The notes below the pieces were generated by a model that had not been told where the DNA came from, ran no database searches, and saw nothing but the letters and a program-made list of their open reading frames with translations. A stretch of 64,000 bases of DNA from a virus. Lineage: Duplodnaviria; Caudoviricetes. Position 1 is the stretch's first letter; every line of letters begins with the position of its first letter. The translations under genes and the position numbers were made by a program. Positions 1 to 43,917 of this stretch are shown here, piece by piece. The DNA is taken from positions 1 to 64,000 of IMG/VR virus record IMGVR_UViG_3300032038_000060; one strand, written 5' to 3'.

Positions 1-293
1 ATGCGCTTTGCACAAATCAAAAAAAAAAGCCGAAATAAGTGGCGATGAAAAAAAAACTATACAGCGACAACACAAAAAAACAAAGAATAAAGTTATTCAT
101 TCTACATGTTCGCGCAGTTGCAATAACTTTATCCTTTAAGAAAAATGGTATAGAGAATCCTTCTCTTTATATTAGATATAAGGTAGATAGTATCTACTAT
201 AGAAACCAGTAATACTATTTCTTCATTCTATATATATATTATAAAGGTATAACGCGCATACACACGCACGTATATATATAATAAGGTACGCAC

Positions 294-644
294 CTACCAA
301 CTGACGCCTAATTTCTTCATGGCTTTGTTGGCATACTGCAAAGTGCCGGGGCCAATGCCGTCCAAGTCGAGCAACTGACCTGGAGTCATGGCAAGGAACT
401 GGCTGAAGGTGGTGACTCCCTGCTTTGCCAGAGCATTACGGAGTCGGGCGGCATAGGCTTTGTGTTTTTTGCCGAACGCCTCGCAAAGATCGTCCATTGT
501 AAACGTTACTTCCTTAGGGCTTTCACCTTCAGCAACGGTTGGTGTCATGCTTTCGGCTATGGCTTTGCGTATCTCACCCAGCTCATACTCCACCTTCTCA
601 ATCCGCTTCAGTATAGCGGCCACGCTTTGTTTACTCTTTTTCAT
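294..644 (-). CDS. Small protein with a C-terminal RNA polymerase alpha-CTD-like (helix-hairpin-helix) domain
   Basis: Start MKKSKQ at 644, since a promoter box at 670-677 lies inside the longer ORF call. The C-terminus RLRNALAKQGVTTFSQFLAMTPGQLLDLDGIGPGTLQYANKAMKKLG follows the alpha-CTD pattern R..N.L...GI.T..DL...T..LL.....G..SL..I...L...G. Confidence 0.65.
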   Translation of the reverse strand: MKKSKQSVAAILKRIEKVEYELGEIRKAIAESMTPTVAEGESPKEVTFTMDDLCEAFGKKHKAYAARLRNALAKQGVTTFSQFLAMTPGQLLDLDGIGPGTLQYANKAMKKLGVSW

Positions 645-669
645 AATGTTATTATTCTTGTAGCTGCTG

Positions 670-677
670 CAAAGGTA
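670..677 (-). promoter_or_regulatory. Bacteroidetes sigma-A type -7 box (TACCTTTG)
   Basis: caaaggta at 670-677, 26 nt upstream of the ATG at 644. No clear -33 TTTG box. Confidence 0.6.
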
Positions 678-746
678 CAAATATTTTTCCAAACAGCAAT
701 GGGTTTGCAGAAAAATACATCGCTGTCACCATCGACAACTGCCCTG

Positions 747-782
747 TGCCCTTGCAGGCGGCAAGGCAAAACCGTAAATTTG
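747..782 (+). promoter_or_regulatory. Variant of the phage late-promoter motif (TGCCCTTG-N20-TAAATTTG)
   Basis: TGCCCTTG 747-754, 20-nt spacer, TAAATTTG 775-782, upstream of the HU-like gene at 892. Confidence 0.55.
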
Positions 783-891
783 CAATTAGTTAATTCACAT
801 TGATGCTTTTCGTTAATCCAATCAATTGGTTTTCGTTAATTGGCATTTATTCGATTAGTTAATATATAAACCATTTAAACATTTTTCAATC

Positions 892-1464
892 ATGGCTCAT
901 AACGTTAAGATAAAGTATTATGCGCGAGAGAACACACAGATGGGTACGCACAGTTTCTACGGACAGGCTATCCCAAACGGGACGTATGGATTTGAAGAGG
1001 TCTGCATCCAGGCCAGTCGCAACACCAGTATCGAGGCTCACACTATCAGGGCTGCCGTACAGGAATACATGGCAATCGTCATGCAGCGTCTGCTCGACGG
1101 CTTCAGAGTAGAGGTAGGCCCGCAGTTCCTCACATGCTCCCCAAGCCTGGTGGCAAAGGTGAAGGACACACTCAACGATGACGGCACCGTAAAGAAAGCC
1201 TGCACAGCCGACGATCTCAGCGCACGCAGTGGTAAGAGCCGCGTGAAGGTGGTTGTCAATCCTGAGTTCTCGCATGAGTTTGCCAGCAGCGTGAAGTGGC
1301 AGAAGAGTGACCGCAAGGGTAACGTCATCGACGAAGAGGAGGAGGATGCTACCCTCGACGACGAAGAGGCTGCTAACAACAACGACGGTAACGAAAACCA
1401 AAACGGTAACCAAAACCAGGGCGGTGGCTCCGGTAACACCGGCGACGGTTGGGAAGAAGGTTAA
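892..1464 (+). CDS. Bacteroidetes-type HU/IHF-like DNA-binding protein with an acidic, N/G-rich tail
   Basis: 190 aa. The pattern 'SIEAHTIRAAVQEYMAIVMQRLLDGFRVEVG...F...PSL' fits the Bacteroidetes HU-like family. Low-complexity D/E/N/G C-terminus. Confidence 0.7.
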   Translation: MAHNVKIKYYARENTQMGTHSFYGQAIPNGTYGFEEVCIQASRNTSIEAHTIRAAVQEYMAIVMQRLLDGFRVEVGPQFLTCSPSLVAKVKDTLNDDGTVKKACTADDLSARSGKSRVKVVVNPEFSHEFASSVKWQKSDRKGNVIDEEEEDATLDDEEAANNNDGNENQNGNQNQGGGSGNTGDGWEEG

Positions 1465-1544
1465 AGGTTAGCCGCTGAAGCTGGTTTCTTGCAGTCGGGC
1501 GTACAAACCCTTTGTGCAAGCGGCAGAGCCGATTACAGGTTTCT

Positions 1545-1650
1545 GGTTTGACTTCGTCGATACCCTCTACTACTTCCATAGTTCTATGTGCTCCCCACAG
1601 GGGTAACTTCGCACAGAACTATCAGGTCATAGCAGAGTGCATTCAGGTTT
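1545..1650. repeat. Structured intergenic (REP-like) element, diverged copy
   Basis: Begins ggtttgacttcgtcgata like the copies at 14701, 21580 and 22057. Internal stem with cccc-aca-gggg. Confidence 0.6.
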
Positions 1651-1762
1651 CAGGCATTGCCGAGGCGCAGCCTAAGCTCGACCGAAGGTCAATGGTTAAA
1701 TCGGTTAAGAACGAAAACGAAAACGATAAACTCTTTTTTCAAGTTTAATATTGCCATTTTGG

Positions 1763-1793
1763 GGGCTGGTGTCGTGAGGCATCAGCCCTTTTT
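1763..1793 (+). terminator. Rho-independent terminator-like hairpin with a CGTGAGG loop
   Basis: gggctggtg (1763-1771) pairs with catcagccc (1780-1788), followed by ttttt. Confidence 0.65.
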
Positions 1794-1875
1794 GTCTGCC
1801 CACTGGCTTCGCCGAGCGCTATTCGCACCTCAGGAATAAATAACATTGCCGTTAATGCATTCCGTTCGGTTTGTC

Positions 1876-1910
1876 TGCCCTTGCTTTTACGCTTGCGCGT
1901 GTGTATTTTG
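1876..1910 (+). promoter_or_regulatory. Phage late-promoter motif TGCCCTTG-N20-TATTTTG
   Basis: Boxes at 1876-1883 and 1904-1910, upstream of ORF 1969 and the tape measure gene. Confidence 0.75.
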
Positions 1911-1968
1911 CGCGTAAAAAAGATAATACAGTTTCAAGTTTCAAGTTTCTGGTTTCAGGTAAAGATAC

Positions 1969-2493
1969 ATGGCTAACGAACTATGGCGGGAGAAAGACCC
2001 GTTTGCGGAGCATATATGGGCGACCAAGTTTGACTGGCGCGACGAGCGGGTGATGCAGTTTATCCGCAACTTCATCAAGTTTGGTAAGGAAGACTCAAAG
2101 AAGAACATACAGCGACTGGTCGCTATAAAATCGGGCAAACTAATCCGCAGTATCGGATGGAAGGCATGGAGCGATAGCGGCGGTGACGCGGAGGTGTTTC
2201 AGGAGACATATCTGAAATACGGTCAGTTCGTAGAACTTGCTGTCGGTAAGAACAATCCTTACACACCTATCGACCCCATAACACAGAGGGCATGGCGACC
2301 TATACCCGTCAGGGGACGCAAGCGCAGGGCAAAGCCACACAGTACTGCCGAAATGCGAAAGCAGGCCCGCAAGTTTGAGAGACTGGTTGTTAATCACCTC
2401 TCATTCATGGGTCTTGGATTCCTCGTCTATGCTGCTGGTGCTAACCGCGAGAACTACGAGGAAATTAACCGCCTGATGATGGCACGGAAGTAA
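1969..2493 (+). CDS. Phage virion protein, possibly neck/tail-completion (HK97 gp10-like)
   Basis: 174 aa, basic, 'KSGKLIRSI' and 'YGQFVELAVGK' motifs, directly upstream of the tape measure gene. Function inferred from position. Confidence 0.4.
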   Translation: MANELWREKDPFAEHIWATKFDWRDERVMQFIRNFIKFGKEDSKKNIQRLVAIKSGKLIRSIGWKAWSDSGGDAEVFQETYLKYGQFVELAVGKNNPYTPIDPITQRAWRPIPVRGRKRRAKPHSTAEMRKQARKFERLVVNHLSFMGLGFLVYAAGANRENYEEINRLMMARK

Positions 2494-2500
2494 GGGACGG

Positions 2501-2563
2501 GTTTCAGGTTTCTGGTTTCAGGTTTCAAGTTTCTGGTTTCAGGTTTCAAGTTTCAGGTTTCAA
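2501..2563 (+). repeat. Tandem heptamer array GTTTCWR x9
   Basis: Nine consecutive units gtttcag/gtttctg/gtttcaa. The longest of many such runs in the window. Confidence 0.95.
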
Positions 2564-2593
2564 GTAAGAACAACACAAACACAATATACGACT

Positions 2594-5500
2594 ATGAGCA
2601 ACAAGATAGCTTTAGCTACTATTCAGTTTCGCGCCGATGCGAAGGGCGCTAACGTAGCTCTCGAATCGCTGCGCAGCAGTGCCGATAATGCACGCCGAAC
2701 CGTAAACGAAATGCAGGCAGCGCTGGATAAGGGCATCAAGACGATGAAGGACTCTACCGGCGTGGAGTTCAACGTGGCTGACCGCCTAAGGGCTGCTACC
2801 AAGGAGGCCAAGGGCTTTGAGTCTGCAATCCACGAACTGATGAAGGGTGCTACAGCTCTGGAAGAGGTAGTACGAAATATCCGTCTGGGTGAGATTGAAA
2901 AGAGCAGTCGTGCCGAACTGAAGGGTGCCATCAACGCAGCGGAGAGCCGCAAGCGTTCTGTGCGTGGAAGTGACGAAGATAGTCTGAAGATGCAGCGTGA
3001 GCTGAACATCGTCATCGAGGAAAGCCGCAAACAGCTGAATAACCTTGACCGTGACACGCAAAAAGTTATTGATACGCTGAAGAACGGCGGTACTGTCGCG
3101 GAGTCGGTTCTTAACAAGGAGCAAAAGGGCTTGCAGGAAATACTCTCACTCATCCCAAAGGGTACTGAGGAATACAAGCAGTATGCTGCACAGCTGAAGG
3201 AAATCAAGACTCTTGTAGCCAACATCAAGCAACAGGAGCAGATAAAGGCCACCTCGCTGCTGGGCGATCAGAACCTTGGCAAATATACCGAGGAGCAGAT
3301 ACGCGCTGCCATTGATGCCGGCAAGTTGCTCATTCAGACTTACAAGACTGCCAGCCCTGAGGCTAAGGCTCTGGCTGACAACATAGCACGTGCCGAGCAG
3401 CACCTGAAGAACTACGGCATCGAGGCGGCTCGCGCTGCTGCAAAAGAGGCAGAGCAGATAAAGACGCAGGAACAGGCGGAGAAGCAACTGCGTATCACGA
3501 TGAATGGACGTCTGCGTGAATTGCCGAAACTGTCTGCCGAAGCTCTGGCTGAGACCAAGAAGTATTGGGAGGCGCAGAAGGCCGGTGCCGCGATGGGCAG
3601 CGCGGAGTTAGCCAAGTACGAGACTAACCTGAAGAAGATTGCCAATCAGGAAGAGAAGCGCCGCAGGGCACAGCTGGACAACGTTCTGACACAGCCAGGA
3701 CAATATGGTGTGGCAGAAGTGAAGGCTGCTACACAGGAGATGGAAAAACTGCGTGACAGCGTAAAGCAAGGTTCTGCTGCATGGCTGCACTATAACAAGA
3801 TGGTGGAGCAGGGTAAGGCGTACCTTGACGGTCTTGCGCTGCAAAAGGTAGAGACTCAGATGCAAAATCTCAGTACTCTCTCTGCTGCCGGACTGGCAGA
3901 GGTGAAGAAGTATTGGGAAGCGCAGGTATCAGGTGCCGCTCTTGGGAGCAGGGAACTTGACGAATACAAGGTAAAGCTGGAACAGGTGACTGCTGAGGAG
4001 CAACGCCGCACACAATTGCAAGCCCAACAACGTGTAGGTGTTCTCTCCAGCGGGAACCTGGGCCAATATACCGAGACGCAGATACGTCAGGCTATAGAGG
4101 CCGGGCAGCAGCTTATCAAGACGTATGCAACCGGTAGCACCGAGGCGCAAGAATTGGCGCAGAAGATTGTCGCTGCCGAGCAGCATTTGCGCCAGTATGG
4201 TGTGGAAGCGGAGCGCACGGCGGCGAAGGAAGCGGAGGCAGTGAGGAAGGCTGCCGAGGAACGTGCCAAGAACGACGCGCTGATGAAAGAGCAGTTGCAG
4301 AAGCAAGGTGCCCTGCTGTCAGAGTCTGCCCTGAAACAGCAGCAGCAGTACTGGCAGAGACTCATTGACGACCCCAAGACGGCAGCATCAAGCCTGCAGG
4401 AGTATAAGAGAAACTTGCTTGACGTACAAAGGGCACAACAAGCACAGACACAGATTAAAGGACAAGAGGCCCTTACCTTCTTCCGTGGCGACACCAGCAA
4501 TGCCAGTGCCGCTCAGATAAAGGAGCAGGCAGATGCTCTGAAGAAATACCGAGACTCGCTGCCACAGCAGACTAATGCCTCTATTATTCAGGAGATAGAC
4601 GGATATCTGGCAAAGACAGGCAAGACAGCCGAAAAAGCGACACAGGAGATGATAGAGCTTTCTAAGGCGATGAGTGTTTCTGCCAATTCGGGCAAGAGTG
4701 CTTTCGGCATTTCTAAGCAAAACATGGAGCAACTGGATTTCCTGAAGGAGCAGAAGAGATTGCTGGAAGAACAAATGGCAAGCGTGGCAAAAGGTTCTTT
4801 CACATGGCAAGAACTGAATAGAGAGTTGGCAGAGGTTAACGCACAGATGCAACGTCTGCCGTTTGCCGGTACTACCGAGGACTTACAGAAGGCACAGAAG
4901 GCAATAGAGCAGGCACTGGCCACCACCGACAAGGGTACGCCAAAGTATGAGCGTCTGCGTATGGCCCTCTCCCGTATCAAGGCTGAAATGGCAGGGGCTG
5001 GTATTTCTGCACAGAAGACGCAGGAGGTGCTGGCAAATCCGAAGGCAGAAAAGAGTATGGATGTCTTAAAGGCTGCCATTGCACGGGCACGTGCTGAAAT
5101 GGACGTGATGGGTCAGCGTGCCGAGCGCCTGAGATATCTTATAGAACAAGCCAGTGGCAGCGAAACATCCAGACACAGATTAGAAAGTCTGCAGAAAGAG
5201 TTGAGAAAGACGGAGGCAGACATGGCACAGCTCACCAAGGGCACCAAGGAATGTGACTTCGCACAGAAGCAACTTGCCAATACTTCCAAGGGTGCTGCCA
5301 GTTCCTTTGAAAAGGCATGGTCTCGCTTGAAGACATACATCACCCTGTATGTCGGTGCAGCCGTTGCTATACAAAAGATTACTGCCTCATTGGGTGACTT
5401 AATGGAACTCAGTGACAAGATGGGTGAGGTGCAGAAGACTACCAATCTGAATGCTGAAGCAGTAGGCCGCTTGTCTGAAAAACTAAAAGCCCTCGATGTG

Positions 5501-8500
5501 CGTACTCCTTTGGCAGACCTCATGGCTGTATCGGCAAGTGCCGGACAGTTGGGTTTGAAGACCGAGGAGGATATCATGGGCTTCACCGAGGCGGCTAACA
5601 AGATGATGATTGCCTTGCCTGAAATGGGTAAGGAGGCTGCAACGGAAATGATGCGTGTAGCTATCGCGACAGGCGAGGTTGACAAGATACGCAAGGAAAT
5701 GAGCCAAGGTTTGATAGAGGGTAGCAGTGCTACGGCTGTGGCAATGGAGAAAATTGCATCTACCGTTGACCGTCTGCGTGCAAGCAGTGCAAGTACGGCT
5801 CCTGAAATTACGGACTTCGTAAAGCGTGTTGGTGCCGTTGGTGCTCAGAGCGGCATATCTATTGATCAGGTAGCAGCCCTGGGTTCTACCATCAGTTCTC
5901 TTGGTATGCGTGTTGAGATGTCGGCAACGGCGTTGTCTCGTATGATACCGGCTATCAAAAACAATGCGTTTTCTGTAGCCAAGGCTATTGGAGTAACACC
6001 TGAGACCCTGCGTAATCTGTTTGAGACAGGCAGGGGTATGGAGGCAATACTGCTGATATTCCAGCACCTGAAGGATGCAGGCAAGGATGCTGACTCCATC
6101 GAGAAAATGCTGGGGCTTGGCGGTATGCAGGACGTGATGAAGCAACTTAACCAACAGGGTGCCAGGGCCGGCATCGTGTTTGCGGGTTTGTCACAAAACG
6201 TTGACGAGTTGCGCAAACAATTGGGTGTAGCTAATCAGGCTTACGAAGAGAACATCGCCATACAGCGGGAATTTGACCGTATGAACGATACCGCCGCCGC
6301 AAAGTGGGAAAGACTGAAAAACCAGTTTGAGGAGTTCTTTATAGGCGATGCCTCACAACGTTTCATGGGTGGACTGATCGATACTCTCCGTGGTTTTGTT
6401 GATGTCCTTACAGGAAACGTAGGTCCTGCTCTTCAGACTGTCACAGTACTTATTCACACATTCCTTGCATATTGGGGTGCATTGAAACTTGGTTTGGGTG
6501 AAGCTATTTTTGTCAAGGCATGGGAGGGCCTAAAGAATTTAGGCACGACCCTTTCTGGACTTACAACGACAACACAAAGGACTATCGTCTATACCAAATT
6601 ACTTGCAAAAGCAAACGAAGAACTGGCGGTAGCAACAACAGCAGTGGCACAAGCTGAAACAAGACAGAAAGTTGCCGCCATCGAGGCACGCATGGCACAG
6701 GAGGGTTTGAACAAAGCTATGGTTGCAAATATATGGATGGCCGTAGCTGTGGCCGTCGGAGCTTTAGTTCTTCAGGTTGTAAGATGGATAGATGCTGCCA
6801 ACGAGGCTGGCAAGGAGGCCGCTAAATTTGAAAGCGAACTGATAAGGGAGCAGATACAGGTAGATAATCTGACGGAGTCCATCGGTAAGGCAAGAGCAAA
6901 AATTGACGAGACAAACAAGGATGTTGAAAAGGCGCAAAAGGCTTTTAATGAAGCAAAGAAGAGTCTCGATGGCACTCGCGAGAGTACAGACAGACTGACA
7001 AAGGCCGAGACGGAACTGATAGAAAAGCAGGAGGCACAGCGCAAGGCTCTGGCCGAGCACAAGCGAATGATTGAACAGTTTAACACAGAGTATGGCAAAT
7101 ACCTGGGCTTTATGCTGAGTGAGGTTTCTTCAAACATTGAACTGGCACAGGCCCGCGAGTTAGTTAATGACAAATTGCGTGAGACTATCACCCTGAAGAA
7201 AAGGGAGGCTGCTATTACCCGTGTGGAGAATAAATACGGAGAAGATAGGGACGATGCTTATGCGTCTCTATTGGGTGCTGCACGCTATGCTTCCACCTCA
7301 AAAGACAACACTGGGAAAATGGTGCAAGACCCTACTAAGGCTGCAAAGGTAATGAATGCCATAACGAAGGCTGCCAATAATGACAAGCTGAGCAGGGAGC
7401 AATTTGAGAAGACCATTACAAGTTTCTTTAAGGAAAACAAGGTTGGCTACCGAGGAACGTCTTTGTTGAGTAAAGCACTCGATTACTTTGACGAGGTGAA
7501 AAAAGTCCGCGAGAAGACTAATGACGTGCTGGAACAATACAAGGGTGAAGACAAGGCTAACCGCGAGCAGTCACAGAAAGGACTGGAGCGACAGTACACA
7601 GCAGCCGTCGGCACTTACCTGGACCTTCAGAGAAAATACGTGAAGGCGACAGGTGATGCAAGAAAGCAGGCTGCCGCCGACATGCTGAAGCAGATGGACA
7701 GCATCAATGAGATGGTGGATAATTCCTCCAACTACTTTGACATGACCGAAGAAGATGAAAAGAGGTCGTATAACACCTTTATAAAGAATGGCGATGCTCG
7801 TCTGAAAGGTATGAACGCACAGCGTGAAAAACTTCTGAAAGAGGCAGGCAATGCCTATCAGTCGCGCAAGAAAGTAGGCGGTGGAGAGACTTCATCCATC
7901 AAGACTAACCCTTGGGGCGGCAGCCATGAGGCAGAGAGCATTGACTGGAAGAACATGAATGCCGATCAACTGGTGGCACGCCGCAAGCAGATGAATGAGT
8001 TCGTAAAAGCCATTCAGACAGACAGCGATGTTCAGAGCGTACTGAAAGAGGATGCCGCACTAAAGAAAGCCATCGAGAAGGGTATGTCGAGCGATATGCG
8101 TACCGTCATAGAATGGTATAACACAGAGCGCCTGAAGATACAGGATGAGTTGCATGCCCGTCACCTGACCAATACCGGCGACTGGCAGGATCCAAAGAAG
8201 CAGGCGGCCCGCAAGAAACAGTTCACGGATGAGATGAAGGCGTATCTGGAGGAACTGGATGCATACTATACAGAGCGCAACCAGAAGATTCAGAACGCCC
8301 GCAACGATGAGGAGATTACAGAAGGCGAGGCATGGCGACAGACCATTGAGAACGAGAGTGAATGGCATCAGCGCAGGGCCGAGCTGCAGAAGATGTACTC
8401 TAACAAGAGTGCCGAGGTGGTGAAGGATGAACAGGATGCTATTCACAGTATCATTGCCAAGAGGACCGGTGACGATGTTGCGTATATCGAAAAGAGCATA

Positions 8501-11500
8501 CAGAAGACAAAGCAGTTTGCCGAGCAGGTGCGCAAGGCTGACCCTCGCGGCGAGGACGAATACCGAAAATGGCAGGCTGACCTTGGACTGGGATGGGAAA
8601 AGGACTTCATGCAGCAGGCAAAGGCCATCGGCAAACAGGTGAAGTTCATGACGGACACACTGGCTAAGGAACGTCCGTTTAACGGCATCACTGAAAACCT
8701 TGAACTGAACCTGACGAAGATGGGTATATTGGTTGGCAACGTGCCCGACAAGATGCACTTCCTGTTAGGACAGATAGAGGATGCATATACACTGGACGTT
8801 AAGCAAATGGTTGACCGTGTGGCTCAGGCAGGCTTTACAGAGTGGGCTAAGCAGTTGCAGGGCGACGTATCTATGCAACAGGCTATGCTGGCACAGTTGC
8901 GCACGGCATACGAGGCGGTACAGGAGGCTATACGTAAAGAGGGTGCCCGCATAAAGAAGGATGCTGACATGATGTGGAAACTGGCTCTGACTCCTGACGG
9001 AAAGAATCTGAAGCAGGAGATTGATGCAGCAATGGTGAACATGACACAGCAGCAGGAGGCTGTAAGCAGAGCCAACTCCCTCATTGGTGCCGGAACGGCA
9101 TCGGAGAATGTGGCTTCAAGAGTAGCCATCAAACAGATGCAACTGCAGCTGAGTGTACAGCAGGCTCAGTTTGCCTTAATGAGAAAGATGGGCGACGAGA
9201 AGGCTCAGTACCTGGATCAGCTGGCAGAGCAGTATGAAAAGGAAAATAAACTGAAGGAGGCTGAAAGGGCTCGTCTGGATGCTGAAAACGTAAGAAAGAG
9301 TCTTGACATTGCCATTACGGAAGAGAAAAAGAAGCAGGCTGAGATTACAAAACATATTGCAAAGGAGCAGGAAGAAATACAGAATCGCCTGTATAAGGAC
9401 TTGCGCGAACTGAGCGGTCTCCTCACCAAAGGCTTGCAGGGTGTCTTTGAGGCGGTGAACTTCTACAACAGCAGCGACTATAATAATCTGGCTGTGACGC
9501 GGGCTGGTGGCTCGTATAACAAGAATACCACCAAGACGACTTCCTACAGCACCAGCAGTAAGGTGACGGACACGGGAAAGCATTCTACCTCGACGTCCGC
9601 TTCTTCTACCTCTACCAAGACGAACAAGACGGACTCGTCGGATGCATCACAGGCATCAAAGTCTTCTTACTCTGATACCAACCGCGACCAGAGTGTGAAC
9701 CGTTCTGCTACGTCAGACACTCACTCTACCACCAACACGTCGCAGTCGAAGACCTCTACCACCACGACGGAGAAGATACAGAGCTACTACATCATCGACA
9801 ATGCAGGTACGAAGGATGCTGTGGCCCGTGAGGTGGAGATGTCGGAGGAGGAGTATTACGAGAAGAAGATAGAACTCGACCGCGATAATGCCATCAAGGA
9901 AGCATGGAAGAATCTGCTCGACGAACTGAACATGAAGATGTCAGAGACCATCACTGATCAGATCAATGCCATGTTCCAGCAGGAGGCTATCGACACCAAT
10001 ACGGCTGCCCTCCGTCTGAATACTGATGCCCTTACAGGACTGACAGCCGCACTGGGTGCTTCACCTGAAACCAGAAACCAGAAACCTGAAACCGGCGATT
10101 GGGCCCGCGACGCACAGGGCATGGCTTTGGATGACAGCGGCAACATCGTTTATCCAATCCATCCGACAGAGACGGAAAGTGCCAAGCCGCTATTCCCAAC
10201 CTCTGCAGAAGATTGGGAAAAGACGAGGGAGCAGATGGGTGAAACCTTCCAGTTTGCCGGTGAGAAGATGATTGAGACCAACGAAATGCTCAACGAGGCA
10301 GGTGTCAAGCCGCTCTTCCCACAGCCAATGACCGACGACGAGGTGACGAAGACCATTGACAACTATGGCCTGATTCAAGACTCAATGGCAGAGAAGGTCA
10401 TTGAGACAGGTCAGATGGTACAGGATGCTGGCGTGCAGCCACTTACTCCGCAGATGATGTCGGACGAGGAGGTGCAGGCACAAATCGACCAGGCAAACAC
10501 TCTGGCACAGGGTAAGATTGATGCCCAGAACGCGGTAGCTGCCAATAAGGTAAATACTGACCAGCAACAGGTGAAGAGCGAAACATCTACTGACCAGCAG
10601 ATGACGACAAGTGCCAACAGCATGTATGCGAAGATGATACAGGCTGCAAATCTCTATGGTATTGCATATCAGGCAATGTCAAACGATAATTTGAATACGG
10701 CACAGAAATTCGAGATGATTGCAGTGCAGGCAGCAGGTCAGGCTGCAATATCTGCCTTGACAGCTTCTATGTCGCAAAATGCTGCACAGGTCGCTGCTGA
10801 CACTCCTGCCGTCGCATCTAAGACTTTTGCGCAACTTGGTCCTATCGGTGGACCTGCTGCCTTTGCTGCTATCACAGCTTTGCTTGGTGGTTTGCTTGGT
10901 GTTGCAGTCAGTAAGATTGCCAAAAGTAAGCAGGAAATCGCTCAGGCTACGGGTGTCAGTGCCTCTGGTACCAACGTCAGTGCCGGAAAGCTGATGACGG
11001 GTATGCTGACGTATGGCGAGGGTAACGTAAATGAGTTTACGGACCCAAGCAGTCTGACGCCGGGCAGGTCGTACAACGTTGACAGCGCGGACGGAAGGAC
11101 GTACAGGGCAAGGTATATGGGGGCTGACCCGAAGACACACCTGACGAACGGACCGGAGTTCCACCTGGTAGGCGAACGTGGCAGAGAGGCTATCATCGAC
11201 GCTCACACGACACGTCTGATGCAGATGGACGATACGGGCATCTGGCAGGCTATACAGACGTTGTATAACGGCGGCTCACTGCGCCACAGCGTCATGCGCC
11301 GTAAGGGACGTGGCATGGCTGCCTTCGCCGACGGAAACATTGACGAGTTCGAGACGACGGCTGATGGCGGAGGTCTGATGGCTGGCGGTGCAGGGTTATC
11401 ACCTGAACAGATGATGGCGCTGCAGGCGAGCATCGACAGACAGAGCGACTTGCTGGAGCGTGCTATGACGGACGGCATCCATGCATACTTCGACGTGTAT

Positions 11501-11572
11501 GGCAGAGGCGGTCTGATTGATAGCTACGACACTGGCAAGAAGACTGTCAACAGTCACGGGGAGAGGTACTAA
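2594..11572 (+). CDS. Tail tape measure protein
   Basis: 2992 aa, Ala/Gln/Lys/Glu-rich helical protein. TP901-type core ('MGEVQKTTNL', 'ASAGQLG', 'SIDQVAALGSTI') and C-terminal 'THLTNGPEFHLVGERGREAII' and 'FADGN' motifs. Confidence 0.9.
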   Translation: MSNKIALATIQFRADAKGANVALESLRSSADNARRTVNEMQAALDKGIKTMKDSTGVEFNVADRLRAATKEAKGFESAIHELMKGATALEEVVRNIRLGEIEKSSRAELKGAINAAESRKRSVRGSDEDSLKMQRELNIVIEESRKQLNNLDRDTQKVIDTLKNGGTVAESVLNKEQKGLQEILSLIPKGTEEYKQYAAQLKEIKTLVANIKQQEQIKATSLLGDQNLGKYTEEQIRAAIDAGKLLIQTYKTASPEAKALADNIARAEQHLKNYGIEAARAAAKEAEQIKTQEQAEKQLRITMNGRLRELPKLSAEALAETKKYWEAQKAGAAMGSAELAKYETNLKKIANQEEKRRRAQLDNVLTQPGQYGVAEVKAATQEMEKLRDSVKQGSAAWLHYNKMVEQGKAYLDGLALQKVETQMQNLSTLSAAGLAEVKKYWEAQVSGAALGSRELDEYKVKLEQVTAEEQRRTQLQAQQRVGVLSSGNLGQYTETQIRQAIEAGQQLIKTYATGSTEAQELAQKIVAAEQHLRQYGVEAERTAAKEAEAVRKAAEERAKNDALMKEQLQKQGALLSESALKQQQQYWQRLIDDPKTAASSLQEYKRNLLDVQRAQQAQTQIKGQEALTFFRGDTSNASAAQIKEQADALKKYRDSLPQQTNASIIQEIDGYLAKTGKTAEKATQEMIELSKAMSVSANSGKSAFGISKQNMEQLDFLKEQKRLLEEQMASVAKGSFTWQELNRELAEVNAQMQRLPFAGTTEDLQKAQKAIEQALATTDKGTPKYERLRMALSRIKAEMAGAGISAQKTQEVLANPKAEKSMDVLKAAIARARAEMDVMGQRAERLRYLIEQASGSETSRHRLESLQKELRKTEADMAQLTKGTKECDFAQKQLANTSKGAASSFEKAWSRLKTYITLYVGAAVAIQKITASLGDLMELSDKMGEVQKTTNLNAEAVGRLSEKLKALDVRTPLADLMAVSASAGQLGLKTEEDIMGFTEAANKMMIALPEMGKEAATEMMRVAIATGEVDKIRKEMSQGLIEGSSATAVAMEKIASTVDRLRASSASTAPEITDFVKRVGAVGAQSGISIDQVAALGSTISSLGMRVEMSATALSRMIPAIKNNAFSVAKAIGVTPETLRNLFETGRGMEAILLIFQHLKDAGKDADSIEKMLGLGGMQDVMKQLNQQGARAGIVFAGLSQNVDELRKQLGVANQAYEENIAIQREFDRMNDTAAAKWERLKNQFEEFFIGDASQRFMGGLIDTLRGFVDVLTGNVGPALQTVTVLIHTFLAYWGALKLGLGEAIFVKAWEGLKNLGTTLSGLTTTTQRTIVYTKLLAKANEELAVATTAVAQAETRQKVAAIEARMAQEGLNKAMVANIWMAVAVAVGALVLQVVRWIDAANEAGKEAAKFESELIREQIQVDNLTESIGKARAKIDETNKDVEKAQKAFNEAKKSLDGTRESTDRLTKAETELIEKQEAQRKALAEHKRMIEQFNTEYGKYLGFMLSEVSSNIELAQARELVNDKLRETITLKKREAAITRVENKYGEDRDDAYASLLGAARYASTSKDNTGKMVQDPTKAAKVMNAITKAANNDKLSREQFEKTITSFFKENKVGYRGTSLLSKALDYFDEVKKVREKTNDVLEQYKGEDKANREQSQKGLERQYTAAVGTYLDLQRKYVKATGDARKQAAADMLKQMDSINEMVDNSSNYFDMTEEDEKRSYNTFIKNGDARLKGMNAQREKLLKEAGNAYQSRKKVGGGETSSIKTNPWGGSHEAESIDWKNMNADQLVARRKQMNEFVKAIQTDSDVQSVLKEDAALKKAIEKGMSSDMRTVIEWYNTERLKIQDELHARHLTNTGDWQDPKKQAARKKQFTDEMKAYLEELDAYYTERNQKIQNARNDEEITEGEAWRQTIENESEWHQRRAELQKMYSNKSAEVVKDEQDAIHSIIAKRTGDDVAYIEKSIQKTKQFAEQVRKADPRGEDEYRKWQADLGLGWEKDFMQQAKAIGKQVKFMTDTLAKERPFNGITENLELNLTKMGILVGNVPDKMHFLLGQIEDAYTLDVKQMVDRVAQAGFTEWAKQLQGDVSMQQAMLAQLRTAYEAVQEAIRKEGARIKKDADMMWKLALTPDGKNLKQEIDAAMVNMTQQQEAVSRANSLIGAGTASENVASRVAIKQMQLQLSVQQAQFALMRKMGDEKAQYLDQLAEQYEKENKLKEAERARLDAENVRKSLDIAITEEKKKQAEITKHIAKEQEEIQNRLYKDLRELSGLLTKGLQGVFEAVNFYNSSDYNNLAVTRAGGSYNKNTTKTTSYSTSSKVTDTGKHSTSTSASSTSTKTNKTDSSDASQASKSSYSDTNRDQSVNRSATSDTHSTTNTSQSKTSTTTTEKIQSYYIIDNAGTKDAVAREVEMSEEEYYEKKIELDRDNAIKEAWKNLLDELNMKMSETITDQINAMFQQEAIDTNTAALRLNTDALTGLTAALGASPETRNQKPETGDWARDAQGMALDDSGNIVYPIHPTETESAKPLFPTSAEDWEKTREQMGETFQFAGEKMIETNEMLNEAGVKPLFPQPMTDDEVTKTIDNYGLIQDSMAEKVIETGQMVQDAGVQPLTPQMMSDEEVQAQIDQANTLAQGKIDAQNAVAANKVNTDQQQVKSETSTDQQMTTSANSMYAKMIQAANLYGIAYQAMSNDNLNTAQKFEMIAVQAAGQAAISALTASMSQNAAQVAADTPAVASKTFAQLGPIGGPAAFAAITALLGGLLGVAVSKIAKSKQEIAQATGVSASGTNVSAGKLMTGMLTYGEGNVNEFTDPSSLTPGRSYNVDSADGRTYRARYMGADPKTHLTNGPEFHLVGERGREAIIDAHTTRLMQMDDTGIWQAIQTLYNGGSLRHSVMRRKGRGMAAFADGNIDEFETTADGGGLMAGGAGLSPEQMMALQASIDRQSDLLERAMTDGIHAYFDVYGRGGLIDSYDTGKKTVNSHGERY

Positions 11573-11600
11573 AGCCTCTCCGCCTTAGGCGGCGGGCTTT
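11573..11600 (+). terminator. Terminator-like hairpin after the tape measure gene
   Basis: aagcc..ccgcc-tta-ggcgg..ggcttt immediately after the stop codon. Confidence 0.5.
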
Positions 11601-11960
11601 GGTTTCAGGTTTCAAGGTTTCAGGTGGCTGGCGCATGGGCGGTGGGCTTTGGTTTCAGGTTTCAAGTTTCAGGTTTACCTCCGGTCTGGGCTTTGAAAAA
11701 AAACCGAGAAAACATCTTTCTTCGGTCTTGAAGCTCTTGCGAGCCTTTATGTTAAGCGTTACGCCTGTGTCATTGAAAGTACACTCTCATGCCACCGCAT
11801 AACTCTTATCATATCCACCACCGTGGTTACAAGCCCTCGAAAGCAAAAACCCCGGCCTGAGCTCATCGCCGGCCTGGAAAACCAGTTATACCATTTGACT
11901 CCCTCATGTTTTTACTTGTCAGTCTAATACAATATTTGGTTTTTCTGATTGTGAAAACAA

Positions 11961-12133
11961 TCGGGGTTTTTTCTGACAAGGCACTGCCTTACTGTAAGGA
12001 AGGTGCAGAGGTTCAGGGAAGGGTGACATGGGAGCTCGCTCACGATGGCGCAATTACTTGAAGCACTGCAAGATCTTAACAAGACCAGTGCCGATGGCAG
12101 GGTTTTTTAGGTTTTTGTTTCCATACGCAAAGG
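11961..12133. ncRNA. Candidate structured RNA, element A (paralog of 13080-13253)
   Basis: Colinear similarity to element B. Two hairpins keep their pairing despite substitutions. Shared tail gggttttttaggtttttgtt..cgcaaagg. Confidence 0.4.
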
Positions 12134-12197
12134 AGGGTTAAGGTTAGGGTTAACGTTAAGGTTGAATTAAATTAGAAACTTATATTTAACAATTTTT

Positions 12198-12698
12198 ATG
12201 AAGTGGTTCAGAAATTTATTTAAGAAGAAATCTACCTCCCCTGAGGAGGCCGTACCTCTCACCATCGAGGGTGTAGAGCCTGCTCCTATGACACCGGAGC
12301 CTGACGATGCAGAACTGGCTGCACAAGCCATTCTTGAAACGCTGGCAGAGCCGAAGGCGGCAACGAAAACGAAGACGAAAACAAAAAAGAAAACCGTGAA
12401 CCGTGAACCCTTAACCGAGAACCGTGCCTCTGCCGACCATTTTCGTGAGCTCGCGAAAAAGATACGCCAGGCACATGAGCAGTCACGGCAACGGACGCTG
12501 CGGTTTATATGTTACTGCGAGCAGGAACTGCAAAAGCCTGATCTGCCGGAGGTGGGTAAGGGCTCGCTCAGTCTGCTGGAGGCAGAACTGTATAAGCGCA
12601 TCGACACGGTAGAGCGCGAGGGTGGCGACTTGAAACGCCGCTGGCAGCACTGCCTGGCCGAGGTTACAGTAAGGCGGATAGGAGTGGATAACGGTTAA
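12198..12698 (+). CDS. Hypothetical protein (coiled-coil)
   Basis: 166-aa ORF with an AT-rich leader. No recognisable motif. Confidence 0.6.
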   Translation: MKWFRNLFKKKSTSPEEAVPLTIEGVEPAPMTPEPDDAELAAQAILETLAEPKAATKTKTKTKKKTVNREPLTENRASADHFRELAKKIRQAHEQSRQRTLRFICYCEQELQKPDLPEVGKGSLSLLEAELYKRIDTVEREGGDLKRRWQHCLAEVTVRRIGVDNG

Positions 12699-12825
12699 CG
12701 GTTAGAGGTTAGAGAGGGCTGCGCGGTGGGCTCAGACCGAGGTTTTTCCATGATAGTATGCGGAAAACCTGTTAGGGTGTGTGATGTGAGGTGGGCGCTT
12801 TGGATGGATGCTTGCATACAAGAAA

Positions 12826-12908
12826 AAGCGAATGCCTCGCATCATAAGGTGCTGCAGGCACTCGCATACTGTCATGGGGTTTTTTAGGTTTTTGTTAATA
12901 CTCGCAAA
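12826..12908. ncRNA. Candidate structured RNA, element C (partial paralog)
   Basis: Hairpin gcga-a-tgcct..gcatc[ataa]ggtgc..aggca-c-tcgc followed by the same ggggttttttaggtttttgtt..cgcaaagg tail. Confidence 0.35.
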
Positions 12909-13079
12909 GGGGATAGGGTTTTGTTTCCATACGCACCTCGTGCTTTTTCATTAGTATTCATGGGACTTGGAGACATAAAACGTGAAAGGCAAAACGCAAT
13001 TAGAAACATGCGTTTAACATTTATTATGTTTAAGGGAGTCAAGTACATTTCTGTGTTTTTTTAGCGACTGATGAAGGAG

Positions 13080-13253
13080 CGGGGTTTTTCCTGACAAGGC
13101 ATAAACCTGACGCAAGGCAGGTGTAGAAGTTCAAGGACTGACGACATAGGAGCTTGTTCATAGTGACGGCAGAACTTGAATTGCGACATCAGTCTGTAAA
13201 GACTTTATGTCGATGGCAGGGGTTTTTTAGGTTTTTGTTTATCTTCGCAAAGG
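13080..13253. ncRNA. Candidate structured RNA, element B
   Basis: Paralog of element A. Hairpins cctg-ac[gcaa]gg-cagg and gacat-c-agtct[gtaa]agact-tt-atgtc. Confidence 0.4.
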
Positions 13254-13459
13254 GGCACAAAAAAGCGCCACCCCAATGAAAAGCTACAACATGGGATGGC
13301 GCGAGGGATGACACGAAAGTCATCCGCTGCATGGCTTTCTTAGGACAATTAATATACAAAAGCAGCACCTCACGGTGGTTATGGAAAAATGAGTGTAAGC
13401 AAATATCGCAGGAAACAGTCCTGACTCCAGAAAGAGTTCACAGAACTGATTTCTGAGTG

Positions 13460-13491
13460 CAAAGGTACTACTTTTTTATGTATCTCGCAAA
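13460..13491 (-). promoter_or_regulatory. Host-type promoter TTTG-N20-TACCTTTG pointing into the ORF-poor region
   Basis: caaaggta 13460-13467 and caaa 13488-13491, exactly 20 nt apart. Confidence 0.7.
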
Positions 13492-14034
13492 TAATCAGTG
13501 AGTTATCTTCGCCGCCGCAAAAAATATTTTTAAGGAGTTCCGCCGTTCGCAGCATCTTATATTTTTGTAAAATACCGCGTAATGTATTGATTTACAATTA
13601 TTTATAATATATTTTTGCGGTTATATATATTTTTTCCTTAATATAAAGTATAGTAAAAATAAATAAAAGTTATCTATATATTATATGTAATAGACTGATA
13701 ATCAATCTTTTCTTTTCTTTGTTAAATCCTTTTTATATAATGAGGAGAGCGGGGAGTTCTTACCTTTCAGAGAAAGATATGATTTGTAGGAATATTTTAT
13801 GTTTATAAAAGGTTTTGTCTAAAAACGGGGGTTTTTCGGGAACAGGGTGTTTTTAGGCTTGTAACTTGTTGATTTTCATATATGTTACATGTGCCCAGAC
13901 GCTTTAGGAACTGAACAAGGCTAAAAGGGTGCGAAATTTGTCGTAACTTATTGATTATCAGGTGCGCCCCTAAATCGTACCAAAAGTGCCCAAATAAACA
14001 TTTTTTCGGGGAATTAAAGATAACTCGCAGATTA

Positions 14035-14066
14035 TTTGTGAGGAATTAAAATAATGCGTACCTTTG
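14035..14066 (+). promoter_or_regulatory. Host-type promoter TTTG-N20-TACCTTTG
   Basis: tttg 14035-14038 and tacctttg 14059-14066, upstream of the ATG at 14083. Confidence 0.75.
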
Positions 14067-14082
14067 CAGAAAATTAAAACCG

Positions 14083-14682
14083 ATGACGAACAATACCTAT
14101 ACTATGCCGGCGATATGCTGGCTGAAGATTACTGACTACATGAGGCCGTGGATGGAGCATGAGCTTGGCGGCGAGGTGAGGGCTGGCGAACAGCGTGTGA
14201 TATGCGTACAGCATCTTCCTGGGGCGCGTGAAATACTCCGGATGGAAACGAAGGAGGAGATGATGGAGCAGCGTATCGTCGGCAATACTATGTCGGCCAC
14301 CTTACGCAACTGTATTGATGCAGGCATGGTACTGGATGCTTCGGCAGTAGAAAGGATGTATGGTATTACAAAAGAGAATCTGAAAGCGTATATGCCAATA
14401 GAGTGTCCGAAGATGTGCCTGACGAAGGACGGCGTACTGCGCCCGTGGACTCAGGATGTGTATTTCGGACGACAGCAGGCTATAGATTTGCAAAGGCTGC
14501 TGAGAGTGGAATATTGGAAGGCGGTAGAGAGATTCAACGAAAGTTACAAGCGCAAAAAGAACGGACGCTGGTATCCTGCGGTCGAGATGATTGAGGACTT
14601 CTGCCAGGAGACGAACACTCCGGACATGTATATCGAGGCCATCAGGAGGGAGTGGCAGAGGAGGTGCAAATCAAAGGCGTAG
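14083..14682 (+). CDS. Conserved-looking phage protein, possible DNA-binding regulator
   Basis: 199 aa. The C-terminal 'AVEMIEDFCQETNTPDMYIEAIRREWQRR' is helix-turn-helix-like. Has its own host-type promoter. Confidence 0.5.
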   Translation: MTNNTYTMPAICWLKITDYMRPWMEHELGGEVRAGEQRVICVQHLPGAREILRMETKEEMMEQRIVGNTMSATLRNCIDAGMVLDASAVERMYGITKENLKAYMPIECPKMCLTKDGVLRPWTQDVYFGRQQAIDLQRLLRVEYWKAVERFNESYKRKKNGRWYPAVEMIEDFCQETNTPDMYIEAIRREWQRRCKSKA

Positions 14683-14700
14683 GCTTTGATTTGGGTTTCA

Positions 14701-14809
14701 GGTTTGACTTCGTCGATACTCCCAAGTTCTCCCAGTTCTGTCTAAGCCTCTTCGCAGAAGCAACATCGGCTTGACATCACTGGTCGCTTTGGGCGCATTC
14801 AGGTTTCAA
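14701..14809. repeat. 109-bp exact repeat (copy 1), REP-like structured element
   Basis: Identical to 21580-21688. Confidence 0.95.
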
Positions 14810-14827
14810 GTTTCAGGTTTCAAGCCG

Positions 14828-15487
14828 TCAGCCGCGCATACTTTTGCCTTCAAAGACTATTACCTTCGTAATAGCTCTGAGGCGGTCGAGGGTGCGAAGG
14901 CCATAGCGGCCTTCGATGGAAGGTATGGCAGTGTCTGTGGCGCGAGTGGTACGCAGGTTGGTGGTAAGGACAAGCAGACCGCCGCGACGCTCGCAGCTGT
15001 CAACGATTTCGTTGAAGGGAATGTGACGGTTGCCATAAATGTTAACCTCCACGGGCTCGGTACCGATGTCGTCGATAAACAGGAGTGCGCCACACTTATC
15101 CTGTATTGTATCAAACTTCTGTGTCATGTCGATGGCCGTATAGCAGTTAGGGACTTTTCTGGCATAGCGGTTTATTAGCACCGGGATGATGTACTGACAG
15201 ATTACTGTCTTACCCAGACCGCAACTTCCCTGGCATAGCAGTCCCCTACCCTTGTTATCCGTTAGCCATTCAACCACCTTGTCATAGGCTGGGAGCCACT
15301 GATACTTCTCACCGAGATAATATTGCAGGCCAGCACGCAGCTTTGCCTCTGCATCAGCGATGTGTATATGATGCTGCAGTTCTACTCGCGGTGTGTAGTT
15401 ATACAACGCTTTACCATCATGTCTGCTGGTGAGGTCGGCCACTCCGGCCCCGAAGTCATTCACGAGATTTTGATTTTCCATTACCAT
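14828..15487 (-). CDS. DnaC/IstB-like AAA+ ATPase (helicase loader)
   Basis: Walker A GSCGLGKT, Walker B LFIDDIGTE, sensor LTTNL. Overlaps the end of the Rep gene. Confidence 0.85.
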   Translation of the reverse strand: MVMENQNLVNDFGAGVADLTSRHDGKALYNYTPRVELQHHIHIADAEAKLRAGLQYYLGEKYQWLPAYDKVVEWLTDNKGRGLLCQGSCGLGKTVICQYIIPVLINRYARKVPNCYTAIDMTQKFDTIQDKCGALLFIDDIGTEPVEVNIYGNRHIPFNEIVDSCERRGGLLVLTTNLRTTRATDTAIPSIEGRYGLRTLDRLRAITKVIVFEGKSMRG

Positions 15488-16770
15488 TCCTTCTGTCCTT
15501 TAAAATAATCTTCTGTCGTATTCTGTATTATAGTGTCATTCCCACTACCCTTCTTCAGCGGCTGTGATGACACCTCTTGTGCGGAGGTGAAGCATTTGTT
15601 TTCCTCCTCACGGATATAATCGTCTATGGCCTTATGAGTCCATGCTGCGATGTTACGGACATCGCTGTGTCTGCCTGCCATGAACTCGTCGTGCCACGTC
15701 TGCAGCTGTATGACAAACCCGGGCATGATAACGGGTGTTACACGACGGAGCAGGGCACGTGCCTGGTTGATGTGGAGTCGGAAAAATTCTATCATAAGTT
15801 TCTGACATAACTCACGGTTTGGGGCGTAATCATTTTCTTCTTGAATGGTTCGTCCGGCTTCTGTGGGCAATATAGTAAAGGCCACTGAATCAGGTCGTTT
15901 ATATGGTGGCAGAGGTGTTCCATGTAATAATCCCTGGTAGGTGAAGGTGAAGTCAGAACCTCCACTCTCTGCAAGTTTATCAAGTTCTTTCTGGGCCTGA
16001 TTGAGTACCTTTTCGCAGAACTGACTCCATGAACCATAACGATTCTCACGTTCAGGATCGTCGCTATCCTTTACAAAACCAAGACGTGTGCGTAAATCGC
16101 GCATAGGTATAACAAACTGTTCACTCTTTAGCCGACGCCATTCTTCAGAAAGGTATATGTATAGGGGGTATGAAAAACTGCTACGCAGACGACCTGCTGT
16201 ATATCCTATAAACCGAGTATAGTTACTGAAGAGATTTATATCAAGAATATTTTCTGCCGTAAGTCGTGGAATGATAACTGTAAAATCAGTACCTATAAAT
16301 TTTCCGCCCTCGCGCTTGCCATGTATCTGCATCAAATTCTCTGTACGGAAGGACCCCGGATTATTTTTGTCTGGGATAAAGCATTGCACATGAGTAAGGG
16401 ACGCAAGAACAATTCGCGCCTCTTCATAATGTGTATCGTCGGCTATATCGGACATGTGAAGTTTGAAAAGGATATCGCCCTCGTTATAAATATCCCTCTT
16501 CTCCCTGACGACCTCAAATTCATCCGTAATAAAGTTTAGGTATAATTGTCCGGTCTTGTCAGCCTGTGGCATCTTGGCAATGCGCCACAAACCTTGCAGA
16601 CGCTGGAGCACGGCTATCAGCACACGGTAGCCAGTAACCTTATTCATCATCGGTAAGTGGGCCAACTGACGGGGCTGTGTAATCAAGTCCTGAAGACTTA
16701 GAGTAACGGCTTTTTTCTTCTTTTTCTTTGCCTTGGGTTTAGTTCCTTCGGCAGATTTCTTTGTAACCAT
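15481..16770 (-). CDS. Plasmid-type replication initiator (Rep_3/RepB-like winged helix)
   Basis: Start MVTKK at 16770, below a promoter at 16798-16829. 'LRSSFSYPLYIYLSEEW', 'IPMRDLRTRLG' and 'YGSWSQFCEKVLNQAQKEL' fit the Rep_3 pattern. Adjacent to iterons. Confidence 0.8.
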   Translation of the reverse strand: MVTKKSAEGTKPKAKKKKKKAVTLSLQDLITQPRQLAHLPMMNKVTGYRVLIAVLQRLQGLWRIAKMPQADKTGQLYLNFITDEFEVVREKRDIYNEGDILFKLHMSDIADDTHYEEARIVLASLTHVQCFIPDKNNPGSFRTENLMQIHGKREGGKFIGTDFTVIIPRLTAENILDINLFSNYTRFIGYTAGRLRSSFSYPLYIYLSEEWRRLKSEQFVIPMRDLRTRLGFVKDSDDPERENRYGSWSQFCEKVLNQAQKELDKLAESGGSDFTFTYQGLLHGTPLPPYKRPDSVAFTILPTEAGRTIQEENDYAPNRELCQKLMIEFFRLHINQARALLRRVTPVIMPGFVIQLQTWHDEFMAGRHSDVRNIAAWTHKAIDDYIREEENKCFTSAQEVSSQPLKKGSGNDTIIQNTTEDYFKGQKEW

Positions 16771-16797
16771 AAGAGTATTTTTTGTTGTAGCTGGGTG

Positions 16798-16829
16798 CAA
16801 AGGTAAGTATTTAAATCGTAACCTCCAAA
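16798..16829 (-). promoter_or_regulatory. Host-type promoter TTTG-N20-TACCTTTG for rep/dnaC
   Basis: caaaggta 16798-16805 and caaa 16826-16829. Confidence 0.75.
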
Positions 16830-17013
16830 TTTTTTGAAAGATTTTTTTATTTTTAATTGCATTTTTATTTGTTTTGATATTCAGAGATTTACATTTCATG
16901 GCCTTATATTTTGGGCAAGCACAACTATAAATTCGGAAAACCTTTCCTTATATTTAGGGCAGTTCTGGCTGCTATTTCGGTAAATAAAATCTTCATTTTC
17001 GAGAAACTTCTTT

Positions 17014-43882: not shown

Positions 43883-43917
43883 CAAAATAGGATTTTACCT
43901 CCCCGAAGTCAAGGGCA
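43883..43917 (-). promoter_or_regulatory. Phage late-promoter motif (leftward)
   Basis: caagggca 43910-43917 and caaaata 43883-43889, 20-nt spacer. Confidence 0.75.

Follow-up and report, generated by a model that had tools for sequence, protein, structure and literature searches.

Copies of a structured host repeat in a Caudoviricetes genome: probable gene-less arms of a rumen Prevotella repeat/nuclease cassette

In the genome of a Caudoviricetes virus (IMG/VR record IMGVR_UViG_3300032038_000060), the region between 11.6 and 14.0 kb contains one convincing open reading frame (ORF; 12198-12698), which agrees with the ORF-poor character ascribed to it in a preliminary description, and several copies of a structured element of about 175 nt. 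We analysed positions 1 to 64,000 of the record, referred to here as the window, which form part of a record of 72.8 kb that is about 61% complete. On balance our results favour the view that the elements are non-autonomous, gene-less arms of a repeat/nuclease cassette of rumen Prevotella and Prevotellaceae, probably serving as U-tailed RNA 3′-end modules. We are highly confident of the identity and host origin of the elements; their role at RNA 3′ ends is proposed tentatively. The preliminary description had interpreted the region as an array of phage small RNAs (sRNAs). Its paralogous elements, their conserved secondary structure and the plus strand of copies A, B and C stood up to closer analysis; a phage riboregulator array with its own promoter did not, the family being chromosomal and dispersed.

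Each repeat unit consists, in this order, of a small GC hairpin, the sequence GGGU5, a cloverleaf of approximately 135 nt with a four-way junction, which is closed by a U-rich/A-rich stem, and the tail GGGUUUU-NNN-GGUUUUUGUU. Six copies are present in the phage record. Copy A (11962-12135, + strand) comprises the 5′ box, the four-way junction and the U-rich tail followed by N8-CGCAAAGG. Copy E (11679-11854, − strand) folds into a three-way junction and, apart from it, a terminator hairpin with U9, and forms the left arm of a doublet with A. The 107-nt spacer between them (11855-11961) ends in a small hairpin with T6 (11943-11966; inverted repeat I2), which represents the 5′ box of A and was scored terminator-like. 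Copies C (12738-12912, + strand) and B (13080-13255, + strand) are solo arms; C belongs to a different subfamily and has a closing stem of 15 bp, and B shares the subfamily of A and D (71% identity). Just beyond the window, copy F (64142-64315 of the record, − strand) lies beside copy D (64406-64579 of the record, + strand), which is 94% identical to A. Altogether the six phage copies make up the gene-less doublets E/A and F/D and the solo arms C and B, and both doublets are arranged alike, with an upstream gene, an inverted copy, a spacer of about 100 nt, a forward copy and a downstream gene.

The assignment of these copies relied on two covariance models. R1, built from A, B and D, detected C, E and F as well, and R2, built from 76 copies of host metagenome-assembled genomes (MAGs) only, recovered exactly the six copies in the phage record with scores of 74-157 bits (A, 148 bits; B, 142.7 bits). 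Copy C, previously confined to positions 12826-12908, was recognized as a full-length copy by folding and by both models (R1, 62 bits; R2, 103 bits), with a minimum free energy (MFE) of −66.1 kcal/mol and a z score of −7.5. Copy E reached 35.1 bits with R1 and 74.5 bits with R2, and its MFE was −51.6 kcal/mol compared to −33.3 kcal/mol on the opposite strand. The 20-nt tail GGGTTTTTTAGGTTTTTGTT common to A, B and C occurs exactly three times in the window, at 12100, 12877 and 13220, always on the plus strand, with no occurrence expected from 100 shuffles. As proposed before, A and B are colinear paralogs (71% identity over 101 nt) whose pairing is kept despite sequence change: their predicted common structure contains seven doubly compensated pairs, including those of the stem formed by gcactg/cagtgc in A and gacat/atgtc in B. 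In A, B, C and D, each folded on its own strand, a closing stem surrounds three hairpins, and a U tract comes immediately after the stem. The strand had been considered ambiguous; the plus strand of these four copies was more stable by 9.6-17.9 kcal/mol. The GNRA-type loops pointed out earlier turned out not to be a feature of the family.

Comparison of the family at large demonstrated that the elements are non-coding and that structure, not sequence, is conserved. Sequence conservation is restricted to the ends, namely the small GC hairpin, GGGTTTTTC, the closing stem's A-rich 3′ strand and GGGTTTT-NNN-GGTTTTTGTT, and the 197 matches to our search pattern fell into 51 clusters at 80% identity. 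In an R1-fitted alignment of host copies, 88% of the cells were paired compared to 59% in shuffled and 44-51% in slid alignments, and double changes were found in 49 of 51 pairs, many of them with four pair types; such pair counts are inflated because the structure guided the fitting of both the R1 and the R2 alignments. Because the R1-fitted alignment depends on the model, folding was repeated without alignment. The MFE shape [[][][]] was then obtained for 140 of 174 unique copies, and the sense strand was the more stable one in 172 of the 174, by 10.3 kcal/mol on average. Interior pairs comprised 197 G-U/U-G against 43 A-C/C-A combinations, and G-A/A-G juxtapositions occupied 182 cells. A closing stem followed by GGGU4-6, the stem/U-tract arrangement of an intrinsic terminator, is present in all six phage copies; its presence in the 174 pattern-selected copies is a selection requirement. 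The Rfam search suggested earlier (Rfam 15) gave no match at E≤1 for window positions 9000-17000, and eight host loci with copies yielded no relevant match at E≤0.1. ARAGORN reported neither a tRNA nor a tmRNA.

These data also bear on the idea that short peptides are encoded on the minus strand (MSPFPEPLHLP.., MSSVLELLHLP..). Similar short frames do exist in A and B, but substitutions preserve base pairs and not codons. The median longest antisense ORF starting with ATG measured 15 amino acids, frames of at least 30 amino acids occurred in 36 of 174 unique copies, and LHLP occurred in 13 of the 174, which were taken to represent the A/B subfamily. A coding function of this kind is so improbable that we disregard it, and the non-coding elements do not represent decayed copies of a known protein gene either. 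Several further candidates were rejected: a hammerhead or other ribozyme; a tRNA-like gene, for which ARAGORN was negative; a template/variable repeat pair of a diversity-generating retroelement, the differences between A and D not being adenine-specific; and an integron attC site, which is defined by R''/R' core sites (RYYYAAC/GTTRRRY), a simple bulged hairpin and an array beside an integron integrase and not by the ends GGGTTTTTC and GGTTTTTGTT, a four-way junction and dispersed copies mostly in inverted doublets.

To survey the distribution of the family we used the pattern 5′ box GGGTTTTT-N110-140-tail GGGTTTTNNNGGTTTTTGTT. It matched no fewer than 119 contigs from rumen metagenomes as well as 46 species-genome stretches, almost all of the latter derived from rumen Prevotella, Prevotellaceae or Bacteroidaceae MAGs. 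R1 detected 13-31 copies per MAG in five element-bearing MAGs. Of 61 genomes sampled evenly from the same GTDB family, just five, one of them the centre genome itself, had R1 matches, and the repeat family is therefore lineage-restricted. A blastn comparison of the locus with public phage records gave no match, and scans of IMG/VR for the exact 20-mer and the 5′ box returned one chance match within a coding region. The tail combined with CGCAAAGG was found zero times in the metagenomes, and this extension is private to the phage lineage studied here.

Neighbouring copies were mostly arranged head-to-head (38 cases in −,+ orientation compared to three in +,− orientation and eight tandems). The commonest tail-to-tail distance in doublets was about 390 nt, and the U-rich tails point outward. 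Single units lack terminal inverted repeats; in doublets, inverted tails are found at the two ends, (T)TTTAACAAAAACC ... GGTTTTTGTTAAAA. No common motif was present in the spacers of 24 doublets, and the flanks of 36 doublets displayed no consistent duplication beyond an A/T-rich end; the corresponding sites in phage relatives hold other inserts. Copies of the same subfamily are surrounded by unrelated sequences, and the genes at their flanks vary widely, with 139 Pfam families represented in 116 proteins. Tails faced the 3′ end of a converging gene in 73 cases, often at a distance of 1-50 nt. Phased arrays of 7-11-nt units were enriched beside the arms, being present in 7-15% of the flanks compared to about 0.1% after shuffling. 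One 53-kb contig of a Prevotellaceae MAG (contig C38 of G009; L239 covers bases 1-12000) carries at least 13 repeat copies together with whole and broken genes of the GxxExxY and 23S-IVP types. It constitutes a hot spot or else, possibly, belongs to a mobile element that was assigned to this MAG in binning.

The phage copies represent at least four subfamilies common to the host gene pool, and the A/B/D, C, E and F groups are only 45-51% identical to each other (E and A, 48%; D and F, 48%). Copies B, C, E and F each resemble non-phage copies more than they resemble any of the other five of this phage: F shares 89.5% identity with a copy from Prevotella MAG RGIG5145, and both E and B are 77% identical to host copies. 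Copy D is a mosaic with an A-like body and a B-like 5′ flank. The sharing of subfamilies with the host therefore argues for repeated exchange with it and not for evolution as a phage regulator, and the sequence relationships point to several acquisitions, accompanied by recombination, instead of a single paralog expansion within the phage.

Related phage loci retrieved via the protein database illustrate the gain and loss of copies. Between the giant gene upstream and ORF166, the gene located between A and C, the site occupied here by E, spacer and A holds 57 nt in locus L029 and about 205 nt of other sequence in L028. In a further relative, L031, copy C is near-identical (9392-9566) and stands head-to-head with a new copy; B is missing, and two further copies are located elsewhere. 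The similarity between the window and L031 ends exactly at the outer edge of B (13255/13256). Neither blastn nor the covariance model detected elements in loci with ORF166 homologs of 48-68% identity or with a relative of the 137-aa gene.

A link to a nuclease gene emerged from the host MAGs. PDDEXK_3/GxxExxY proteins were the sole enriched neighbours (6 of 116). Conversely, 11 of 12 PF13366 matches in five host MAGs, two of the 12 being weak, had at least one adjoining arm; the chance expectation, roughly estimated from arms ±400 nt covering about 1% of the genome, is about 1%. The arms were oriented as expected at 10 matches, and one more (L243) also has a partial plus-strand match on its left. 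Five matches are bracketed on both sides, and for two more the other side lies off the contig. In the full unit of L236 the gene is flanked on either side, going outward, by a small hairpin, an arm and an outer tail; the unit sits where two converging genes meet, between their stop codons, and its arms share just the inner small hairpin. A GxxExxY gene (PF13366/TIGR04256) enclosed by inverted arms, the arrangement that characterizes the cassette, is thus found in host MAGs. Most host doublets are devoid of a gene, and solo arms occur too. The 72.8-kb phage record, about 61% complete, contains no PF13366 match, and the phage copies are therefore gene-less. No transposase was found between arms, the GxxExxY PD-(D/E)XK protein being encoded by the only gene there, and RAYT genes (PF01797) occurred in two of the five element-bearing MAGs, never near any copy. 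Genes for 23S_rRNA_IVP/Avd-like four-helix-bundle proteins (PF05635) gave 4-9 matches per MAG (G007-G011), several of them truncated and none adjoining arms.

The arms might have a role as DNA. They might act as folded single-stranded DNA (ssDNA) that the GxxExxY nuclease, or the recombination machinery of the host, recognizes or cleaves, with the T-rich boxes as protein sites, in analogy to REP sequences for RAYT and NTS for Ssn; the phage copies would then be inert passengers or recombination hot spots. Besides the strong link with a PD-(D/E)XK nuclease gene, this explanation would account for sequence conservation at the ends alone (GGGTTTTT, GGTTTTTGTT) with an interior that keeps its structure, for the near-random orientation relative to genes, and for mosaic copies and indels at the element borders. 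DNA hairpins tolerate G-T wobbles, so that the strand asymmetry is compatible, and Ssn nucleases with their flanking repeats are a published precedent (PMC11893778). On the other hand, each arm contains a hairpin followed by a U tract two times, invariably facing outward, and this combination is the hallmark of an intrinsic terminator, the frequent G-A/A-G juxtapositions suggest RNA motifs, and the arms of a doublet are not mutual inverted repeats, unlike REPINs. We consider an ssDNA-based function rather unlikely, yet a rival to be taken seriously.

The host family has parallels among known dispersed repeats. Like REP/BIME and REPIN-RAYT systems, it consists of dispersed intergenic structured repeats with inverted doublets and many gene-less copies per genome, a few of which flank one small nuclease-type gene, and folding is strand-specific. 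It differs in that REP hairpins measure about 35 nt compared to arms of about 175 nt with four-way junctions, that the arms of one doublet come from different sequence subfamilies and do not form one long hairpin, and that the partner is a PD-(D/E)XK GxxExxY protein and not a Y1/HUH transposase. NTS/SRM repeats, which accompany Ssn (GIY-YIG) ssDNA nucleases, are short inverted repeats of 20-50 nt (PMC11893778). There, as here, a small nuclease gene is framed by a repeat that is also spread gene-less around other genes; the nuclease fold, the terminator-like U-tract ends and the multi-helix junction set our arms apart. Miniature inverted-repeat transposable elements, or MITEs, are common to prokaryotes and viruses, and Prevotella phages are among the reported cases (PMC11602168). 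They too are non-autonomous host repeats inside phage genomes, usable to link a phage to a host genus, and at the doublet level our family has outer inverted ends of about 20-25 nt (TTTAACAAAAACC...). However, the present family has no transposase and no demonstrable target-site duplication, and its interior is under a covariation-type structural constraint absent from classical MITEs. Finally, the DUF3800-I, drum and skipping-rope motifs are structured, possess 3′ terminators and are linked to nearby protein genes in either orientation (PMC5737381). They share an ornate covarying structure followed by a terminator and tied to a specific small protein gene on either side, but have other sequences and folds; our repeat is high-copy, dispersed, mostly without a gene and matched by no Rfam model.

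Returning to the arms as RNA 3′-end modules, outward reading of each arm would yield an RNA ending in a very stable cloverleaf and a U tract, so that an arm may work as a 3′-end, partial-terminator or insulator module. In the phage, A might lessen transcription running on from the giant late gene into ORF166, and C and B might close the plus-strand late transcript against a converging minus-strand unit, whose terminator the tail of B abuts. Spread of the arms probably depends on the host, through either its nuclease or its recombination acting in trans. More speculative, and in our judgement improbable as a whole, is the extension of this model in which the cloverleaf arms are the specific RNA or ssDNA partner of the GxxExxY PD-(D/E)XK nuclease. 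Arms and nuclease would jointly constitute an undescribed class of small selfish cassettes, able to spread through the chromosomes of rumen Prevotella and to enter their phages, with outward-facing structured terminators as a shield. No description of this repeat was found in the literature searched.

Several observations weigh against arms of this origin and function. A same-strand gene follows within 400 nt of 53 of 126 tails, some at 9-60 nt; the tail of F lies 16 nt from an ATG, and A ends 62 nt before ORF166. Efficient termination would silence genes this close behind a tail. The orientation towards neighbouring genes is near random (73 convergent versus 53 co-directional). Neither a clean empty site nor a target-site duplication was found, and the L028 site contains a different insert of 100 nt. 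The nuclease association could reflect gene insertion into pre-existing palindrome centres, and the inflated pair counts mentioned above belong here as well.

The same short distances raise the question whether the elements are cis-acting leaders or attenuators, in which the cloverleaf senses a factor and chooses between termination and read-through (A for ORF166, F for a 106-aa gene). Both copies precede start codons on their own strand, the 53 family members with a same-strand gene no more than 400 nt from the tail are in line with such a function, and a closing stem with a U tract behind it looks like an expression platform. But the downstream genes are unrelated, as the variety of Pfam families illustrates, tails face gene 3′ ends more often than starts, and the junction lacks conserved unpaired nucleotides hinting at a ligand pocket. 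Moreover, the relatives L028 and L029 have ORF166 without the element. Altogether, regulation of this type is improbable.

Even less probable are independently transcribed, trans-acting phage sRNAs with functions as antitoxin, in anti-defence or in lysogeny control, the explanation we would dismiss next after the peptides. In their favour, the structures are stable and covarying with a terminator-like 3′ end, and multicopy sRNA families are known in Bacteroides and in a phage (FopS, PMC11697453). FopS RNAs possess their own sigma-ABfr promoters (TTTG...TAnnTTTG), a conserved single-stranded 5′ seed and a terminator hairpin alone (PMC11697453). The elements resemble FopS/GibS as a multicopy non-coding Bacteroidales family that also occurs in a phage and has a terminator at its end, but they have no sigma-ABfr promoter and no seed, are not hairpin-only and match no Rfam model. 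In 166 upstream regions the TAnnTTTG −7 box gave five scattered matches, the phage late motif TGCCCTTG-N20-TATTTTG was not found upstream of the elements, and a positional profile revealed no conserved single-stranded seed. In addition, the family is chromosomal and dispersed in hosts, and close phage relatives do without elements. The only nearby promoter, TTTG-N20-TACCTTTG, is indeed exact at 13491-13460, as the preliminary description stated. It is not dedicated to the elements: it lies on the opposite strand and serves a separate unit that is terminated before B.

This unit (13258-13491, − strand), which is not part of the repeat family, consists of the promoter, a predicted transcript of about 200 nt and a terminator formed by an 11-bp hairpin and T6 (13310-13258) that ends 2 nt from B. 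Its identity to L031 is about 97% until the T run is reached, with no similarity beyond. The RNA is predicted to be structured (MFE z score of −3.5), and the unit, located beside an AT-rich region and a Rep/ParA module, is a candidate for a small gene or for an RNA that controls replication or lysogeny. A twin promoter on the plus strand, with its −7 box from 14059, precedes an ORF at 14083. The two identical TTTG-N20-TACCTTTG promoters point away from each other, separated by about 480 nt of very AT-rich sequence, and are carried by a 67-nt inverted repeat (13458-13524 and 14002-14068; 72% complementary). The layout resembles that of a divergent control region or of an origin.

ORF166 itself (12198-12698, + strand) is a conserved phage gene outside the repeat and belongs to a large family lacking annotation (408 homologs in the protein database). 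Portal-like and gp10-like genes are its neighbours in distant relatives, whereas in this lineage it comes after the giant gene, which encodes 2992 amino acids, and is located beside repeat copies. In L031 it is inverted and adjoins the replicon, again beside repeat copies. A partial fourth tail noted earlier was located at 12914-12935 (95% identical to the tail of A) and is part of a degenerate duplicate on the plus strand (12914-13030; repeat families D3 and D6), which combines this tail with the ORF166 leader including its ATG (12998-13028). The ATG now opens a frame of 12 codons. The duplicate is common to L031 and is therefore an old rearrangement scar.

The late-promoter motif proved to be real: TGCCCTTG-N20-TAT(T/A)TTG precedes structural genes and occurs at 1876, 19782, 28119, 43950, 45228, 58977 and 63020 on the plus strand and at 43883 and 58937 on the minus strand, with zero sites between 11.5 and 14.2 kb. 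Most intergenic gaps of the phage contain short phased arrays of 7-8-nt units (GGTTTCA, GGTTAAG/GTTAAC, AATTCAT, AATTGAA), for instance at 11599-11690, 12136-12165, 12686-12712 and about 1925-1965 of the window and at 61-110 and 2090-2170 of L002. They are sometimes placed in 5′ untranslated regions directly after late promoters, and similar arrays accompany host repeat copies.

Our analysis removes a tempting false lead, as there is no phage sRNA regulon at this locus. The phage promoters are of the Bacteroidetes type and a ParA/Rep replicon adjoins the repeat locus; the common repeats tie this phage or phage-plasmid to rumen Prevotella hosts. The family defines a large, strongly covarying four-way-junction element with more than 170 unique copies in about 50 sequence subfamilies that is absent from Rfam, and its tight link to the uncharacterised GxxExxY family offers a concrete candidate substrate for these widespread nucleases. 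If the arms are efficient or regulated 3′-end modules, they would matter for the annotation of transcription units in rumen Prevotella and their phages.

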